49,446 bases of DNA from a virus (IMGVR_UViG_2563366799_000006), one strand, 5' to 3'. Counted from the first letter of the stretch, positions 4,978 through 10,328 are shown. Numbers and translations: made by a program. The notes: generated by a model from the letters alone, not told the origin.

Positions 4978-5116
4978 GTGAGATCCTCATTTTTGGGTGT
5001 TAGAATCCCCGGGCCATTGATAGCGCCCATTGGGTTAACTTTGGTTTTGATGTTGTTTCCGGTGTAACTTTGGTCGGTGCCACCGGACGTAGATCCCGCC
5101 TTGCGCGGGGTGTACG

Positions 5117-5278
5117 TTAGCCTTCGTGAGCCATCTGGTCGTGCGAAGCGCAACGTTTGGAGCAATACTCTTTCTCTTTGCGCGCCAGCAGTGAGCCGTT
5201 GCGATAGAGAAGGGTGCTTTTGATTACCTCTTCCGGTTTAACCGGTTTGCTGCAATAACCGCATTTCTTGTCTTGCAT
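5117..5278 (-). CDS. Small zinc-ribbon-like protein (53 aa, CGYC...C...C), below ORF-track cutoff
   Basis: ATG at 5276-5278 (minus), stop TAA at 5117-5119; hand translation MQDKKCGYCSKPVKPEEVIKSTLLYRNGSLLARKEKEYCSKRCASHDQMAHEG; position matches the small genes between recE and kil in Rac. Confidence 0.35.
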   Translation of the reverse strand: MQDKKCGYCSKPVKPEEVIKSTLLYRNGSLLARKEKEYCSKRCASHDQMAHEG

Positions 5279-5289
5279 GACACTCTCCG

Positions 5290-5655
5290 TTAATGGCTGA
5301 GGCCATTCCCCAGACCGTTCAGATAAACTTCAACCAGCAAATCCCTGGTGTAAGTCATCTCAACGCCGCGATGCAGATACAAACGACCACGAGCATTGGC
5401 TGATGCCGTCCAGGTTGAATCCTTGTGTTTGACGAGCATCCCCGGCTGAACTGCGCCGCGGTTTACTGTCTGTGTACCGTAGTGCTGATGAACCATGATG
5501 TTCTCCACTATTGCTGAGTGAACTTCGCTGGTGGTGCCGTGGTGCTGATCTTCACAGTTGAGCGTTTTAACTCTGCAGTTCACCACCGCGAAACCCACTC
5601 TTATGTGCCTGTCTTTTATCCACTTCAGGCTCGGTGGTATGCTGGTAGTTCTCAC
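5290..5655 (-). CDS. Hypothetical early protein (Kil-position); a shorter 5290..5496 form has a better RBS
   Basis: ORF-track 121-aa form uses a GTG with no RBS; internal ATG at 5494-5496 is preceded by a GGAGA RBS. Confidence 0.4.
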   Translation of the reverse strand: MRTTSIPPSLKWIKDRHIRVGFAVVNCRVKTLNCEDQHHGTTSEVHSAIVENIMVHQHYGTQTVNRGAVQPGMLVKHKDSTWTASANARGRLYLHRGVEMTYTRDLLVEVYLNGLGNGLSH

Positions 5656-5675
5656 ACAGCCAGCAAGGAATAACT

Positions 5676-5969
5676 ATGAAATCAGTAACTAAGCCATGTC
5701 CTATTTGTGGTGAAGATTCTTTGTCTTTTAACCAGACAAATCAGTTGGTTAACATCAAAGTAAAACCACCAACTATTCGTGAAGTTCCATCAGTGGTTTA
5801 CGTTTGCGATACTCACGGATGGTTTTCACTTTCAGAACAGATAAACAGACTCGTCACATCTAATGACGACCCTGCGGCTAAGCAAAAACTGGCTGTTATT
5901 GTCAAAGAGCGATATGTGCCGGAACAGGATCAGCCGTTAGCCCTGAAACCTATTGAGTCGCTCGCATAA
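5676..5969 (+). CDS. Hypothetical zinc-ribbon protein (CPICG...C.THG)
   Basis: 97-aa ORF with AAGGA RBS; rightward gene inside the leftward early region; 3' end overlaps the 3' end of 5950..6219 by 20 bp. Confidence 0.5.
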   Translation: MKSVTKPCPICGEDSLSFNQTNQLVNIKVKPPTIREVPSVVYVCDTHGWFSLSEQINRLVTSNDDPAAKQKLAVIVKERYVPEQDQPLALKPIESLA

Positions 5970-6219
5970 GGTCTTTTCGGCTCTCGCTGCGATATCCCAG
6001 GCGGTACATTTTCACGTAGGCTTTGCCGCGAGGAATGCCGCCTGTTTTGTTGAATCTCTGCTGGGCGCGGCGATGGTGTTTTGCTTCAGGGCTGTTTGAA
6101 CCTTTCCCGCCATTCGATCGAGAACTTGGGAGTTGCATTGGCTTTTGGCGTGAATAGAATTTACGTGCCCAGCATGCTCCAAAGCCGATCATGCCTGTTT
6201 TCTTCGTATTACCTTTCAT
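5950..6219 (-). CDS. Small basic protein, first ORF downstream of the putative PL (N-like antiterminator candidate by position only)
   Basis: 89-aa ORF, GAGGGG RBS, Arg/Lys-rich; lies about 70 nt downstream of the predicted PL start. Confidence 0.4.
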   Translation of the reverse strand: MKGNTKKTGMIGFGACWARKFYSRQKPMQLPSSRSNGGKGSNSPEAKHHRRAQQRFNKTGGIPRGKAYVKMYRLGYRSESRKDLMRATQ

Positions 6220-6298
6220 CTCAATCCCCTCGTTTGCCCTTGTCGCCAGGCCAGCGGAACGTTTGAACTTGATGCGCTTAGTGTTTCTCGATGGGGTG

Positions 6299-6340
6299 AT
6301 GATAGCTAAGGCGATTTATTTTATCAATCGCTTAAACGAT
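6299..6340 (-). promoter_or_regulatory. Putative PL promoter with overlapping OL operator
   Basis: Minus strand reads TTGATA (6322-6327), 17-nt spacer, TATCAT (6299-6304); palindrome ATCGC-TTAA-ACGAT at 6327-6340 matches the OR operator consensus ATCGC-N4-GCGAT. Confidence 0.45.
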
Positions 6341-6663
6341 AATATTGTGATTTTGCCGATTATTATTTGATTTATAAAGTGATTTATTTTTGTATGAGAT
6401 GCGTGATATGCTCAAAAAAACACCAGGCGGGGATATTGATATGGGTTTAGGAATGGATATGTCACGTGATGAGCTGCTGGAAGATCGCGCTGCTTTCATG
6501 GCTGGCGAGATTGGCGGTGCAGTTGTCGAGTAGATAATCAACGGTGTGGTGATAAGTCGAGATGCGATAGTAGATAGCTTGGAGACTAAGCGTCGCGCGG
6601 TTGGAAATGTGATTCACAAAGGAGTGTTGTGGGATGTCACTGCTATGGTGAGAAAAGGAATAT

Positions 6664-6686
6664 GAAAACCGGCATAATGCCGGTTT
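6664..6686 (-). terminator. Hairpin terminator at the end of the cI operon
   Basis: Inverted repeat AACCGGCA-taa-TGCCGGTT followed by a T-rich run on the minus strand, overlapping the stop of 6685..7317. Confidence 0.45.
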
Positions 6687-7317
6687 ACTTTGATTTTTCC
6701 TGTTGGTGAAGTACTCGTGGAGTAGTTGGTTCTTGAGGTAATTGGATGATAACAGGTTGCTGCGCTACTGGTTGAACTACGGGCGGATCACTCTTCAAGG
6801 CAGAAACAAGACTAGGTAATGCAACGACAACCGCAATGATAACGCCAAAAATAGCAAGCCTAGTGGAAATACCTGATTGAATACCGCCAATCGCAGTGTT
6901 TATTCCTGTAATTTGCCCTTGTATACCTTCGAATTTGCCATTGATGGCTTTTACATCCCCATCAACGCTATCCATTTTCCCTTCAATTTTAGAAGAAATA
7001 GAGCTAATAGATGAATTGAGCGATGCCAGCTGAACGTTCATATTCTCGCGTGACAAAGCCATTTCAGCTCTAATCGAAGATGCAATGGACTCCATCTCCG
7101 CCTTATTGGCAGCTAGAAGTGCTTGCATTTCTTCACGGCTAACTGATGACATTTCATTTCCCCCATCAGTTTCATTAGCTTCATCTGTTGATTTGATAAA
7201 GTTAGTATACATTTCTTCTTTATCGACGCGTAGTCTGTTTTGAACATTGGGGTACAGGTCATCTTTATCAATGCCAGAACCGCAGTCTGGGACAGCTTTG
7301 AGAGATGGGCCCATCAC
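6685..7317 (-). CDS. Coiled-coil protein with a single C-terminal transmembrane helix (rexB/sieB position, no recognised family)
   Basis: 210-aa ORF; long heptad-like Ser/Ile/Gly-rich region then hydrophobic segment LAIFGVIIAVVVALPSLVSAL; start overlaps the stop of 7314..7700 (ATGA). Confidence 0.6.
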   Translation of the reverse strand: MMGPSLKAVPDCGSGIDKDDLYPNVQNRLRVDKEEMYTNFIKSTDEANETDGGNEMSSVSREEMQALLAANKAEMESIASSIRAEMALSRENMNVQLASLNSSISSISSKIEGKMDSVDGDVKAINGKFEGIQGQITGINTAIGGIQSGISTRLAIFGVIIAVVVALPSLVSALKSDPPVVQPVAQQPVIIQLPQEPTTPRVLHQQEKSK

Positions 7318-7700
7318 TTCCCATCCTCTCCTTGATCTTCTTTTCTTTTATTAATCAGTGTCCTGGCTTTTTTATAAGAAAAAAGCAGTACATGTGCGCA
7401 GTGATCACACGTGATTCGAAATAGTGGCATACCGCCAGGATATGTCACAGCACTATCAGTATCAGGTTTGTATTGTGCATAACTAAGTGTTTCGATCACA
7501 TGATGTTTTGGCTGATTTTCTTCTACATCAAGATCAAAGGCACCAACTACAGACCATGACTGGTTCCCGCAGATTTGGCAAGTTATTGGTTTTTTGAATG
7601 AATTTATGAAATCAATGAACTCATCCGCTGTGATAATCTCGGAGTTTGCTTCACTATGAAATAATTCCGATTTCATAATTATGATCCTTTTCTGGGCCAA
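7314..7700 (-). CDS. Zinc-ribbon-like protein (CQIC...CDHC), first gene downstream of cI (rexA position, no recognised family)
   Basis: ORF-track 128 aa; likely start is the ATG at 7674-7676 (120 aa) with AAGGA RBS; 20 bp downstream of the cI stop, same strand. Confidence 0.6.
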   Translation of the reverse strand: MAQKRIIIMKSELFHSEANSEIITADEFIDFINSFKKPITCQICGNQSWSVVGAFDLDVEENQPKHHVIETLSYAQYKPDTDSAVTYPGGMPLFRITCDHCAHVLLFSYKKARTLINKRKEDQGEDGK

Positions 7701-7720
7701 AGTAGATAAAAAGTACAGTT

Positions 7721-8404
7721 TTACAATCGGTTATACTTTATTGATTCATGAATCAATGCCTTACCCATTACGTAGAGTTGATCCTGATTACCTTCGTTAA
7801 TGTACCACTTCTCATAAGCTGAGTTATCAGACAAAACTGCCAACCTATCGCCCTGCATCTGCAAGCGCTTCACATGGAAATGTTGTCCGAAAACGAACGC
7901 ATAAACACCGTCGACCTTGAAGTTTCTTACAGAAATATCGAAAAACAATCTGTCACCAGACTGTATAGTTGGACACATGCTGTCGCCATCGACCGTCATT
8001 ACTTTTACGTCTTCCTGAGAACGATTTCCGAAGAGTGAACGAGCGTGTTCGGTTGTGAACTCAATGGCGTGTAGAACCTCAACAAACTCAGAAATCATGA
8101 AAGAACCTGGCCCCGCGCTAAATGTCAGGTCAAGTACGTCAACTCTGAATATGTTTGAGTCTTTTTTTGTCGCGGTAATGGGAGGCGGTAGCTGGCCATC
8201 GTTACGCATCGGTCCGGATCCCGTGGAAAGCCATTCAGGGCGAACATTGAGAACAGAAGCTATCTCGACCGTTTTTCTTGAGCTTGATGCACCATTTAGC
8301 AGCTTGTTAACACTTGACTGTGCCATGCCAACTGCCTTAGCTAGCTTGCCCTGTGTATAACCCGCCTCATTCATTGCGCGATCTAATCGCTCAGAAAAAC
8401 TCAT
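7721..8404 (-). CDS. cI: CI-type prophage repressor (XRE HTH + S24 LexA-like peptidase)
   Basis: 227 aa; N-terminal HTH (QGKLAKAVGMAQSSVNKL); Ala-Gly cleavage site (FSAGPG); Ser in GDSM and Lys in HVKRL; divergent from cro. Confidence 0.9.
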   Translation of the reverse strand: MSFSERLDRAMNEAGYTQGKLAKAVGMAQSSVNKLLNGASSSRKTVEIASVLNVRPEWLSTGSGPMRNDGQLPPPITATKKDSNIFRVDVLDLTFSAGPGSFMISEFVEVLHAIEFTTEHARSLFGNRSQEDVKVMTVDGDSMCPTIQSGDRLFFDISVRNFKVDGVYAFVFGQHFHVKRLQMQGDRLAVLSDNSAYEKWYINEGNQDQLYVMGKALIHESIKYNRL

Positions 8405-8437
8405 TAAAGATACCCCCTAATAACCTTCATAAATATT

Positions 8438-8506
8438 ATCGCCACAGCGATTAATAAGCAAAAAATCGCATAGGCGATTGACATTCGTTAAAGCGATAAA
8501 CATAAT
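8438..8506 (+). promoter_or_regulatory. OR operators and PR promoter
   Basis: Palindromes ATCGC-CACA-GCGAT (8438-8451) and ATCGC-ATAG-GCGAT (8466-8478); TTGACA at 8478-8483, 17-nt spacer, CATAAT at 8501-8506; AGGAG RBS and cro ATG follow. Confidence 0.6.
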
Positions 8507-8533
8507 CAACCTAAATTGATAGAAGGAGCGATT

Positions 8534-8764
8534 ATGAAAAACCCTGCTGTAGAAAAAGCGATTGCAATCGCCGGTAGTCAGAAAGAGCTAGCGAAGCGAT
8601 GTGGTAAGGCCCAATCCACGGTCTGTGACTGGTTAAATGGGAAAAAACAAATCTCCCCGATCCATGTTCCTGTTTTGGTAAAGGCAAGCGAAGGACAGAT
8701 TCAAGCTCATGAATTCCGTCCCGACCTTCCTGAATTGTTTCCGCATCCACATTCAGCCGCCTGA
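8534..8764 (+). CDS. cro: Cro-like HTH regulator (ORF track 8516..8764 uses an upstream TTG)
   Basis: ATG at 8534 with AGGAG RBS; HTH GSQKELAKRCGKAQSTVCDWLNGKK; divergent from cI. Confidence 0.75.
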   Translation: MKNPAVEKAIAIAGSQKELAKRCGKAQSTVCDWLNGKKQISPIHVPVLVKASEGQIQAHEFRPDLPELFPHPHSAA

Positions 8765-8795
8765 CCGGCGGCGCTAACCATCAAGGGAAAGCACT

Positions 8796-9071
8796 ATGCA
8801 ATCACTTACGTTTTACCAGGATACAGGATTGCCGCAGCAGGCGGTGATAAATCGTGCTCAAGCGTGCAAGGGACCTAGCCATGAAGATATTCGTGATGCC
8901 GTTCGCTCATGGGCGGGTGTAGATGGTCAGGATGTCGTTTCTGCTCTGATCATCGAAGAGTACCAGGCGCAGGGTGGTGATGACATCACTTTCCCTGATG
9001 ATCTCTGCCGAAAGCGCCAGAAGCTGTTTCGCTTCCTGGACAACCACTTCAACAGCGAGCGTTACCGCTAG
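8796..9071 (+). CDS. YdaT-like (cII-position) protein, N-terminal part ending at an in-frame amber codon
   Basis: 91-aa ORF ends at TAG 9069-9071; the same frame stays open to 9335; YdaT similarity is from memory. Confidence 0.5.
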   Translation: MQSLTFYQDTGLPQQAVINRAQACKGPSHEDIRDAVRSWAGVDGQDVVSALIIEEYQAQGGDDITFPDDLCRKRQKLFRFLDNHFNSERYR

Positions 9072-9152
9072 AACGTCCGCCAGCTGACTCCGGCAATCCT
9101 CGCTGTCCTGCCGATTGAATACCGCAATCGTCTGCTACCAGAAGACAACGTA

Positions 9153-9335
9153 ATGGCTCGTCTGGCAAGGCTGGAGAAGGAAACCAGCGAAGCGAAGATT
9201 GCTGTCGCAATGGATGCGCCACGTCATCAGAAGCTGAAAGAGTTGAGCGAGGGGATCGTGGAGATGTATCGCGTTGACCCTGGGTTAACCGGTCCGTTGA
9301 TGGAAATAGTGCAGATTATGCTGGGGGCTATATGA
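9153..9335 (+). CDS. Downstream part of the same reading frame as 8796..9071 (possible pseudogene fragment)
   Basis: Same frame as 8796..9071, separated by a single TAG; no convincing RBS before the ATG at 9153. Confidence 0.3.
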   Translation: MARLARLEKETSEAKIAVAMDAPRHQKLKELSEGIVEMYRVDPGLTGPLMEIVQIMLGAI

Positions 9336-9386
9336 CCGGTTCAAAAATGGCGAAAGCCGCGGTGCTCGAACACCAACGGCTTTCAG

Positions 9387-10328
9387 GTGCAAAAACAGTG
9401 CGTAATTGCGGAGAACAGTATGTCAAACACCGCTGAAATAATCAATTTCCCAAATAAAACCGAACAACCGGGAGGTCGTATGACCGACCTGTCGAACGGG
9501 TATACCAAGGTCGCTAACGAGATCCAACAGCTTAAGCCTCGCCTGAGACTGTCAGGCCGGGAATGGCAATGTTTTGAGGCGGTGATCTGGCTTACCTACG
9601 GCTGGAACAAGAAACAGGACCGCGTGACAAATACGGTTATTGCCGAGCTTACGGGCCTGAGCGATACGCATGTATCGGACGCGCTTAAGTCTCTCGCAGA
9701 ACGCAAAATCATCTTTTCACAGAAGCAGGGCATGATGAAAATCGTCGGTGTAAACACTGACCTTTCAGCATGGATTTTAGACAAACCGGAAACGGGAAGA
9801 AAATTCCCGAAAACGGGAAAATCCTTCCCGAAATCAGGAATAACCTTCCCGAAAACGGTAGACACCCAATACAAGAACAAGAACAGTATTAAAAGATCTT
9901 CGTCCGAGAATTCTGACGAATCCTCTGACGCACGTCTGAAGAAATTTTTATCAACTCATCCTGAAGCTGCGGTCTACACACCATCCGGTGCGAAGTGGGG
10001 CTCTGCTGAAGACCTCGAGACAGCTAAGTGGATTTCCTCCAGGGTGAAGCTGATTAACCCAACCTGCAAAGCCCCGGACATGACCTCCTGGTCTAACACT
10101 GTTCGCCTGATGCGCCAGATAGACAACCGGTCGCACCAGGACATCTGCGCGCTGTATGACTGGGCTAGCAAACACCACTTCTGGCAGACCAACATCCTGA
10201 GTCCCGAAAGCCTGCGTAAGCAGTGGGACAAGCTGACAATGCAGCGTAACGCCGGAGGTGAGCAGCGCGCTGTCAAGCCAGATCTGGACTTCAACAACAC
10301 TGACTGGGCCTATGGGGTGATCCGATGA
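9387..10328 (+). CDS. O: Replication initiation protein O (phage_rep_O family)
   Basis: 313 aa; GTG at 9387 or ATG at 9420; N-terminal motif REWQCFEAVIWLTYGW...LTGLSDTHVSDALKSL; ori iterons inside the gene; stop overlaps the P start. Confidence 0.85.
   Translation: MQKQCVIAENSMSNTAEIINFPNKTEQPGGRMTDLSNGYTKVANEIQQLKPRLRLSGREWQCFEAVIWLTYGWNKKQDRVTNTVIAELTGLSDTHVSDALKSLAERKIIFSQKQGMMKIVGVNTDLSAWILDKPETGRKFPKTGKSFPKSGITFPKTVDTQYKNKNSIKRSSSENSDESSDARLKKFLSTHPEAAVYTPSGAKWGSAEDLETAKWISSRVKLINPTCKAPDMTSWSNTVRLMRQIDNRSHQDICALYDWASKHHFWQTNILSPESLRKQWDKLTMQRNAGGEQRAVKPDLDFNNTDWAYGVIR
9786..9861. repeat. Origin-of-replication iterons (about four ~20-bp repeats, core TCCCGAAAACGGGA)
   Basis: Repeats at about 9786, 9805, 9825 and 9845, each with internal dyad TCCCG-N4-CGGGA, followed by an AT-rich stretch to about 9905; located inside O as in lambda. 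Confidence 0.6.

Follow-up and report, generated by a model that had tools for sequence, protein, structure and literature searches.

What governs the 129-bp gap between the divergent genes cI and cro (positions 8405-8533) in a 49,446-nucleotide stretch of virus DNA, IMGVR_UViG_2563366799_000006, and which proteins read the palindromes that lie in it? We refer to the whole of this stretch, at its full length, as the window. The gap is probably the right operator region (OR) of a lambdoid prophage immunity region, in which dimers of both CI and Cro bind the 14-bp sequence ATCGC-N4-GCGAT; judged from sequence, we give this reading a probability of roughly 85%. A sequence-only reading had described a divergent cI/cro region of ~ 130 bp with two such palindromes, a third half-site and a near-consensus rightward promoter (PR), and had taken the palindromes to predict the binding-site consensus of the immunity type. 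The operator sites and promoters, including a predicted promoter for repressor maintenance (PRM), are as follows.

OR3: 8438-8451, ATCGCCACAGCGAT, a perfect palindrome inside the predicted PRM spacer.
OR2: 8465-8478, ATCGCATAGGCGAT, a perfect palindrome abutting the PR -35 hexamer.
OR1: 8484-8497, TTCGTTAAAGCGAT, degenerate, with two mismatches in its left half, filling the PR spacer right after the -35 hexamer.
PR: 8478..8506, plus strand, TTGACA at 8478-8483, a 17-nt spacer and CATAAT at 8501-8506.
Predicted PRM -35: 8456..8461, minus strand, TTGCTT, 3 bp from the edge of OR2.
Predicted PRM -10: 8433..8438, minus strand, TAATAT, with one base in common with OR3.

The first palindrome is present exactly where it had been placed. 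The second is also present, although it starts at 8465 and not at 8466, and the GCGAT at 8493-8497 is not a lone half-site but the right half of OR1, a full, if degenerate, site with an A+T-rich spacer. OR2 overlaps the -35 hexamer, as had been noted, by the single base T8478. PR is indeed near-consensus: it has 11 of 12 matches, is the top promoter-like site in a scan of 5000-10000, and both of its hexamers are at least 90% conserved in relatives (29 unique sequences, described below). Because OR2 and OR1 bracket the -35 hexamer and fill the spacer, bound repressor would exclude RNA polymerase from PR.

Could palindromes of this kind occur by chance? Exact copies of ATCGC-N4-GCGAT are found twice in the window, 27 bp apart, against 0.05 expected from base composition and 0.065 in first-order Markov simulations. 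With up to one mismatch allowed, the whole window contains five sites (2.3-2.4 expected), four of which make up two tight pairs, one at OR and the other at the left operator (OL), and a pair ≤ 40 bp apart arose in none of 200 simulations. The half-sites GCGAT and ATCGC occur 11 times in 8376-8600, where 0.76 occurrences are expected (Poisson P = 6e-10).

The pair at OL was reached by the motif scan of the prophage that the sequence-only reading had suggested. The scan returned the same motif at a leftward promoter (PL), to the left of OR and ~ 2.1 kb (2.15 kb) from it, which is the position of OL and PL.

OL1: 6302-6315, ATAGCTAAGGCGAT, one mismatch, covering the PL spacer and -10 hexamer.
OL2: 6327-6340, ATCGCTTAAACGAT, one mismatch, sharing one base with the PL -35 hexamer.
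PL: 6299..6327, minus strand, TTGATA (6327..6322), a 17-nt spacer and TATCAT (6304..6299).

PL has 10 of 12 matches and is the second-best promoter-like site in the same scan. The junctions of operator and promoter are alike on the two sides, with one T common to the site and the -35 hexamer (GCGAT followed by TGATA at PL and by TGACA at PR). We interpret the one-mismatch pair and its leftward promoter as the probable OL and PL of a lambdoid phage.

The genes on either side of the gap encode the two proteins that would be expected to read it, and here too the earlier description of the divergent region holds.

cI: 7721..8404, minus strand, a repressor gene encoding 227 amino acids, with Pfam domains HTH_3 (helix-turn-helix, HTH; 32.6 bits) and Peptidase_S24 (62.1 bits).
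cro: 8534..8764, plus strand, encoding 76 amino acids, a YdaS-type HTH protein with the recognition helix Q-S-T-V-C-D-W.

Both domains of CI score above their Pfam cutoffs (23 for HTH_3 and 23.3 for Peptidase_S24). The recognition helix of CI, Q29-S-S-V-N-K-L, lies within an N-terminal 434-like HTH, and the translation contains the S24 autopeptidase residues A97-G98 (in FSAGPG), S142 (in GDSM) and K179 (in HVKRL). These residues are kept in 16 of 17 aligned CI relatives; the exception, L009, has a different C-terminal domain. The Ser-Lys distance in the dyad is 37 residues, equal to that in LexA. The cro product matches the Pfam family YdaS_toxin (PF15943) at 53.9 bits (cutoff 30) and HTH_3 at 26.6 bits, and falls in phrog_35, transcriptional repressor.

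Relatives of the same immunity type carry the same sites. Only 5 of 5,426 complete E. coli genomes contain the 1.1-kb immunity region at 99% identity or more, which makes this a rare E. coli prophage type, and a megablast search of the region against 50,697 phage records gave no match; relatives were reached by protein and sensitive DNA searches. Six IMG/VR contigs (L010-L014 and L061) encode CI N-terminal domains identical or nearly identical to that of the window, and all four strong sites are kept in them, the few substitutions within the sites being confined to the N4 spacers. How far OL is from cI varies among these contigs because the genes in between are not the same, so the cargo between cI and OL appears to be exchangeable.

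Four Klebsiella phages, Mulock (MN098327), ST11-VIM1phi8.1, ST512-KPC3phi13.1 and ST13-OXA48phi12.5, have a CI N-terminal domain that is 81% identical to that of the window, with the same CI helix (GMAQSSVNKLLNG) and the same Cro helix. By blastn, the gap aligns to these phages only at 8437-8508, from OR3 to the PR -10 hexamer. No operators are annotated in the Klebsiella phage records; at the corresponding positions they carry the following sites.

OR3: ATCGCCACAGCGAT or ATCGCCAAGGCGAT.
OR2: ATCGCATAGGCGAT, followed by TGACA.
OR1: ATCTCTTTTGCGAT.
O4, the candidate fourth site considered below: ATAGCTGAGGTGAT.
OL1: ATAGCCAAGGCGAT.
OL2: ATCGCTAAAACGAT.
OL3: ATCGCAAAAGTGAT.

OL1 and OL2 are thus conserved both in the six contigs and in the Klebsiella phages. 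Upstream of OL2 in the window, where the Klebsiella phages have their good OL3, lie GTGATTTTGCCGAT (6347-6360) and ATTTATAAAGTGAT (6370-6383). They were considered as OL3 candidates and rejected as poor matches, and have the look of degenerate remnants.

A pattern scan of IMG/VR with ATCGC-N4-GCGATTGACA widened the set of relatives. It returned 120 stretches, of which 68 proved to be chance matches when filtered by CI/Cro helix motifs and the presence of OR3; L182, with a coincidental AQST motif, was a further chance match. The remaining 51 stretches also encode the CI helix motif AQSSV, the Cro helix motif AQST, or both, and in 50 of these 51 a perfect OR3 lies exactly 27 bp upstream of OR2. 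OR2 was set by the scan pattern. The 29 unique sequences among the relatives had in addition been selected for OR3, which leaves the 50 of 51 as independent evidence for that site. Within the 29 sequences the N4 spacer of OR3 takes 10 forms (0.85 bits per spacer column), and OR2 is identical, or altered in the N4 spacer only, in the Klebsiella phages and the IMG/VR relatives. OR1 is imperfect in all lineages, with the form [T/A]TC[G/T/A][C/T]-N4-G[T/C]GAT in 28 of 29 and ATAGATAAAGCGGT in the exception; its position is occupied by ATCTCTTTTGCGAT in the Klebsiella phages and by TTCGCTAAAGTGAT in other lineages.

The predicted PRM was read from the sequence as TTGCTT-17-TAATAT on the minus strand, a weak promoter with OR3 in its spacer. 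In its support, T1, A2 and T6 of the -10 hexamer are at least 90% conserved at the same place in the 29 unique relatives, and a GCAAA block between OR3 and OR2 is conserved in them as well. Phage Mulock has TTGCTA-17-TAGGAT at this position. Also between OR3 and OR2 is a conserved A6 tract (8460-8465), at about -53 to -48 of PR, which could serve PR as an UP-like element; on the opposite strand it makes up the T-run ahead of the PRM -35 hexamer.

Do CI and Cro both read these sites? The strongest computational evidence comes from more distant relatives. CI homologues were taken from species-representative genomes and from IMG/VR, and 17 were aligned. In 15 of them the C-terminal domain is 85-89% identical to that of the window (79% in L006, and 21%, that is unrelated, in L009), whereas the N-terminal domains outside the window's own type are only 40-71% identical. 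Five groups of these relatives have another half-site in the same layout.

Half-site ATCGC: CI helix QSSVNKL, Cro helix QSTVCDW (the window).
Half-site ATAGC: CI helix QPSVWKL, Cro helix QPSVWAW (L003).
Half-site ATACG: CI helix QPTIWRL, Cro helix QPTVWRW (L004).
Half-site ATAAC: CI helix QPAIQKM, Cro helix QPAVHKW (phage HK639).
Half-site ACAAC: CI helix QAAIQKL, Cro helix QAAVQKW (L062).
Half-site ACAAC, with GTTTT as the right half: CI helix QAAIQKI, Cro helix QQAVYKW (L066).

The opening helix residues of CI and Cro shift with the half-site (QSS/QST, QPS/QPS, QPT/QPT, QPA/QPA and QAA/QAA), while the outer A of the half-site and the Gln that opens the helix are invariant across the six types. 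In all groups the sites are 14 bp long (5-N4-5) and centred ~ 90, 63-68 and 40-44 bp before the cro ATG, and the middle OR site is degenerate, or not found at two mismatches, in some groups. When the half-sites of the other types were scanned on each OR, there were essentially no matches, save between types that differ by one base. In L009 the helix QPSVWKL and ATAGC sites occur together despite the unrelated C-terminal domain, which indicates that specificity follows the N-terminal domain of CI. This three-way co-variation of CI helix, Cro helix and half-site argues that both proteins read the sites. Half-sites that are constant among relatives with the same helices, and that change in step with both helices, also support the CI and Cro consensus proposed for the immunity type.

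The near-constant C-terminal and divergent N-terminal CI domains extend over L003-L089, which comprise at least six types, and L009 displays the reverse. This pattern of domain identity points to recombination within cI near the linker.

Beyond OR1, the half-site motif continues toward and into cro.

O4 candidate: 8519-8532, ATAGAAGGAGCGAT, two mismatches, over the cro Shine-Dalgarno sequence, at about +7 to +20 of PR.
Extra half-sites in the first codons of cro: 8549..8571, including GTAGAAAAAGCGAT (8549-8562), a near-copy of O4.

In three of the six immunity types a site with an exact own-type right half is centred 8.5-9.5 bp before the cro ATG (GGAGCGAT, GGAGCTAT and GGAGGTTGT). A chance origin of exact own-type five-base matches at this position in three types is unlikely; by a rough estimate, which was not computed, such a match has a chance of about 0.01 in each type. 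Its change with the immunity type speaks for function. Within the ATCGC type the pattern ATAG[C/A/T]-N4-G[T/C]GAT is present in all 29 unique sequences. On these sequence comparisons we lean slightly towards a functional O4.

Half-sites in excess of the four proposed operators occur in cI, within its first codons (8378 and 8386), and in cro (8558, 8567 and 8596). Within cro, an 86% copy of O4 is found at 8550-8563 (TAGAAAAAGCGATT), and the codons for KAIAIA hold a perfect palindrome that faces outward, GCGATTGCAATCGC (8558-8571). Over 14 lineage groups the flanks contain 2.86 extra half-sites per 186 bp against a background of 0.63, a comparison confounded by conserved peptides and common ancestry.

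Two further ideas are, as a pair, tentative and rather doubtful: that the CI/Cro family is a natural specificity series with a readable and convertible code, and that the switch may have a layer beyond the three sites of lambda. In such a series the types would differ at 2-4 recognition-helix residues in CI and Cro and at 2-3 half-site bases. The extra layer would consist of O4 together with the half-sites at the starts of cI and cro, which might enlarge the repressor-DNA complex or adjust which sites are occupied first; this order appears reversed, OR3 and OR2 being perfect and OR1 always imperfect.

CI and Cro belong to different HTH families, one 434-like and the other YdaS-type, so might the motif serve just one of them, for example with CI on ATCGC-N4-GCGAT and Cro on a different overlapping motif or on a subset of the sites? 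The E. coli O157:H7 prophage CP-933P offers a precedent of sorts, as the target sequences of its repressor PaaR2 and its YdaS protein could not be told apart and two kinds of repeat were observed (PMC8630535). The extra half-sites and the near-copy of O4 inside cro could likewise belong to one protein only. However, the first three helix residues of CI and Cro match, or nearly so, within each type and shift with the half-site, and such parallel change would be expected of two proteins that recognise identical bases. A division of the motif between the two proteins is therefore unlikely. Further DNA-binding proteins are encoded close by, and in principle a host factor, a downstream winged-helix protein or a YdaT-like protein could read the sites in place of CI and Cro. 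This we consider very improbable, given that the half-site tracks the CI N-terminal domain and the Cro helix, including in the natural C-terminal swap of L009, and that the published YdaT motif TTGATT-N6-AATCAA has three matches in the window against 2.3 expected, none of them in or near OR.

The palindromes might also be chance occurrences or act as RNA, as hairpins or terminator-like stems. A terminator scan does list OR2 and OR3 as short stem-loops with T-rich tails on the minus strand, and OR2 RNA has folding energies of -5.5 to -6.6 kcal/mol (z-scores from -2 to -3.2). These stems are nonetheless weak, at 5-6 bp only, and the half-sites of the sister types are A+T-rich (ATAAC, ACAAC) in the same layout. 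Further, the motif is found again at PL and the sites lie on promoter hexamers, and structure in RNA does not explain why half-sites co-vary with protein helices. We regard this explanation as scarcely credible.

Some observations weigh against the interpretation of the gap as an OR read by CI and Cro. The predicted PRM -35 hexamer is poor (3 of 6 matches), and the promoter was missed by the scan of 5000-10000. The centre-to-centre spacings of the OR sites are irregular, at 27 and 19 bp, compared with 24-25 bp in sister types. A good OL3 was looked for in the window and not found, so that OL has two good sites only. O4 overlaps the Shine-Dalgarno sequence, and in most lineages of the ATCGC type its GTGAT half is within an extended ribosome-binding site, GAGGTGAT. 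Finally, OR3 and OR2 are perfect and OR1 imperfect in every lineage, the reverse of the affinity order of lambda CI. As a consequence, the occupancy order and PRM logic may differ from those of lambda, and cooperativity or 434-type spacer effects may have a part in setting the order.

How would such an OR work? We infer the binding of the sites, their filling order, PRM activation, looping between OL and OR, and CI cleavage from the arrangement of the DNA and the proteins. CI dimers and Cro dimers would recognise the 14-bp ATCGC-N4-GCGAT through 434-like HTH domains. CI at OR2 and OR1 would silence PR, and with it cro, the ydaT/cII-like gene and the replication genes O and P, and CI at OL2 and OL1 would repress PL in an equivalent manner. 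By analogy with lambda, CI at OR2 may stimulate PRM, the presumed source of cI transcripts, and CI or Cro at OR3 may shut it. The separation of 2.15 kb between OL and OR would permit looping as in lambda. O4, over the cro ribosome-binding site, may add to the repression of PR. Induction would proceed by RecA-stimulated self-cleavage of CI at A97-G98, carried out by S142 and K179.

The surrounding genes fit a phage of this kind. Downstream (3') of cro are a YdaT-like open reading frame (ORF) and homologues of replication protein O and of lambda P; the series cI, cro, YdaT-like ORF, O and P matches the immunity and replication genes of a lambdoid phage in their usual order. The match of the ORF to YdaT_toxin is weak (20.4 bits, below the cutoff of 21); the RefSeq product name for the ydaT-like gene is ‘toxin YdaT domain-containing protein’. 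This ydaT/cII-like gene (8796-9335, plus strand) has an in-frame TAG at 9069-9071. E. coli MSB1_9D has GAG at codon 92 and an intact 179-amino acid protein, which implies that the window's copy of the presumed CII equivalent carries an amber mutation at E92.

At the start of cI, a mini-ORF on the minus strand, ATGAAGGTTATTAGGGGGTATCTTTAA (8404-8430), encodes MKVIRGYL followed by a stop codon. It begins 7 nt past OR3, and its TAA overlaps the cI ATG (TAATG). In L014 and L061 the mini-ORF is joined in frame to cI by one extra base (MKVIRGVSL-MSFSERL), so the true cI start, or translational coupling, may vary by lineage.

Between cI and OL, at the position of rexAB in lambda, are two minus-strand genes (6685-7676) assigned to phrog_4293 and phrog_5820, function unknown, for which neither Pfam (above cutoff) nor PADLOC returned a match. 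This gene pair is followed by a hairpin at 6666-6686. The first ORF past PL (5950-6219, minus strand; 89 amino acids; phrog_29236, of unknown function) is at the position of lambda N; its product has a basic stretch, KHHRRAQQRFNK, and no match to any known family. HK639, the closest phage by CI, has put-like antiterminator RNAs. An Rfam scan of the whole window matched no family.

So, is this a new kind of switch? It appears to be an ordinary lambdoid switch with a standard OR of 434-like 14-bp operators, the specificity of which seems not to have been described previously: literature on HK639, on Mulock, on the motif itself and on lambdoid heteroimmunity yielded no description of an ATCGC-N4-GCGAT operator. 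Only the specificity series, O4 and the excess of half-sites in early cI and cro codons would go beyond the textbook picture, and the understanding of how lambdoid switches work is unchanged. What is supplied is an operator consensus for a type that occurs in rare E. coli prophages, Klebsiella phages and many metagenomic contigs, which makes homoimmune phages among the carriers predictable. With its near-constant CI C-terminal domain and its variable CI and Cro helices with matching half-sites, the wider CI/Cro family could be a test bed for rules of protein-DNA recognition and a source of orthogonal repressor-operator pairs.

The parallels with lambda are extensive. As in lambda, cI and cro diverge, three sites between them overlap PR and PRM, the repressor has an S24 domain, a second cluster of operators is ~ 2 kb away at PL, and cII-like, O and P genes follow downstream. 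Unlike lambda, with its 17-bp sites, the window has 14-bp sites (5-N4-5), its CI has a 434-like DNA-binding domain, and its Cro is a YdaS-type HTH protein without the lambda Cro fold. In addition, OR3 and OR2, rather than OR1, are the perfect palindromes, a probable fourth site covers the ribosome-binding site of cro, and cI is not leaderless.

The resemblance to phage 434 is in the DNA recognition itself. Among solved structures, the best match to the CI N-terminal domain is the 434 repressor (2r63, 1per, 2or1; phmmer E = 4e-5), although the resemblance in sequence is weak (25-26 bits, E = 4e-5 to 1e-4, residues 2-64). In the alignment Q29 of CI is opposite Q28 of 434, and in 434 co-crystals Q28 contacts the outer A of the operator. 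Both systems have a 14-bp operator (ACAA-N6-TTGT in 434), an outer A, a Gln that opens the recognition helix, and recognition helices that are similar in repressor and Cro. The sister type with ACAAC-N4-GTTGT sites and the helix QAAIQKL comes close to the 434 site, whereas the window differs in its half-site, ATCGC, and in its helix (QSSVNKL compared with QQSIEQL in 434); there is no detectable homology between the window Cro and 434 Cro. From the similarity of the CI N-terminal domain, the 14-bp operator, the Q29/Q28 alignment and the invariant outer A and Gln, we infer that CI may dock as 434 does.

Among named phages, HK639 has the closest cI homologue (72% identical), with the same OR and OL layout and 5-N4-5 sites. 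It differs in its site, ATAAC-N4-GTTAT, and in its helix, QPAIQKM, and the overall identity is carried by the C-terminal domain (88%, compared with 51% for the N-terminal domain). HK022 CI is 45% identical to the window CI, and HK022 was rejected as a model for the sites because its annotated operators are 15 bp long (TGAAC-N5-GTTCA; X16093). The Klebsiella phages, Mulock and its kin, are closest in specificity: their CI and Cro helices, OR3, OR2, PR sequences and OL sites are the same as in the window, and these common helices and sites suggest that the two probably share one immunity specificity. They differ in that CI beyond the N-terminal domain is more divergent, OR1 is ATCTCTTTTGCGAT, a clear OL3 (ATCGCAAAAGTGAT) is present and the cII gene is of lambda type, whereas that of the window is of ydaT type.

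CP-933P provides experimental background for a YdaS protein in this role. There YdaS takes the role of Cro and binds where the repressor binds, with overlapping footprints of the two in the divergent intergenic region, and four repeats are reported in OR, with matching operators at PL (PMC8630535). The window is like CP-933P in having a YdaS-family protein at the position of Cro and a YdaT-family protein at that of CII (PMC8630535, PMC9986795). CP-933P differs in its repressor, PaaR2, whose gene is leaderless and is followed by a toxin-antitoxin pair, and in its repeat consensus, GTTTAGTAA, which lies within 18-bp palindromes (PMC8630535, PMC9986795).

Correlated change of helix and operator also has a precedent. 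Neither ATCGC nor GCGAT occurs in PMC6649833, where a Cro ‘evolutionary code’ (Hall, Lefevre and Cordes 2005, cited in PMC6649833) is summarised as changes in helix residues that track the OR half-site consensus across lambdoid types. So far as that summary goes, the co-variation reported here exemplifies a known correlation of Cro helix with OR half-site (PMC6649833); the code as summarised there concerns Cro proteins only, whereas here the correlation extends to CI and Cro.

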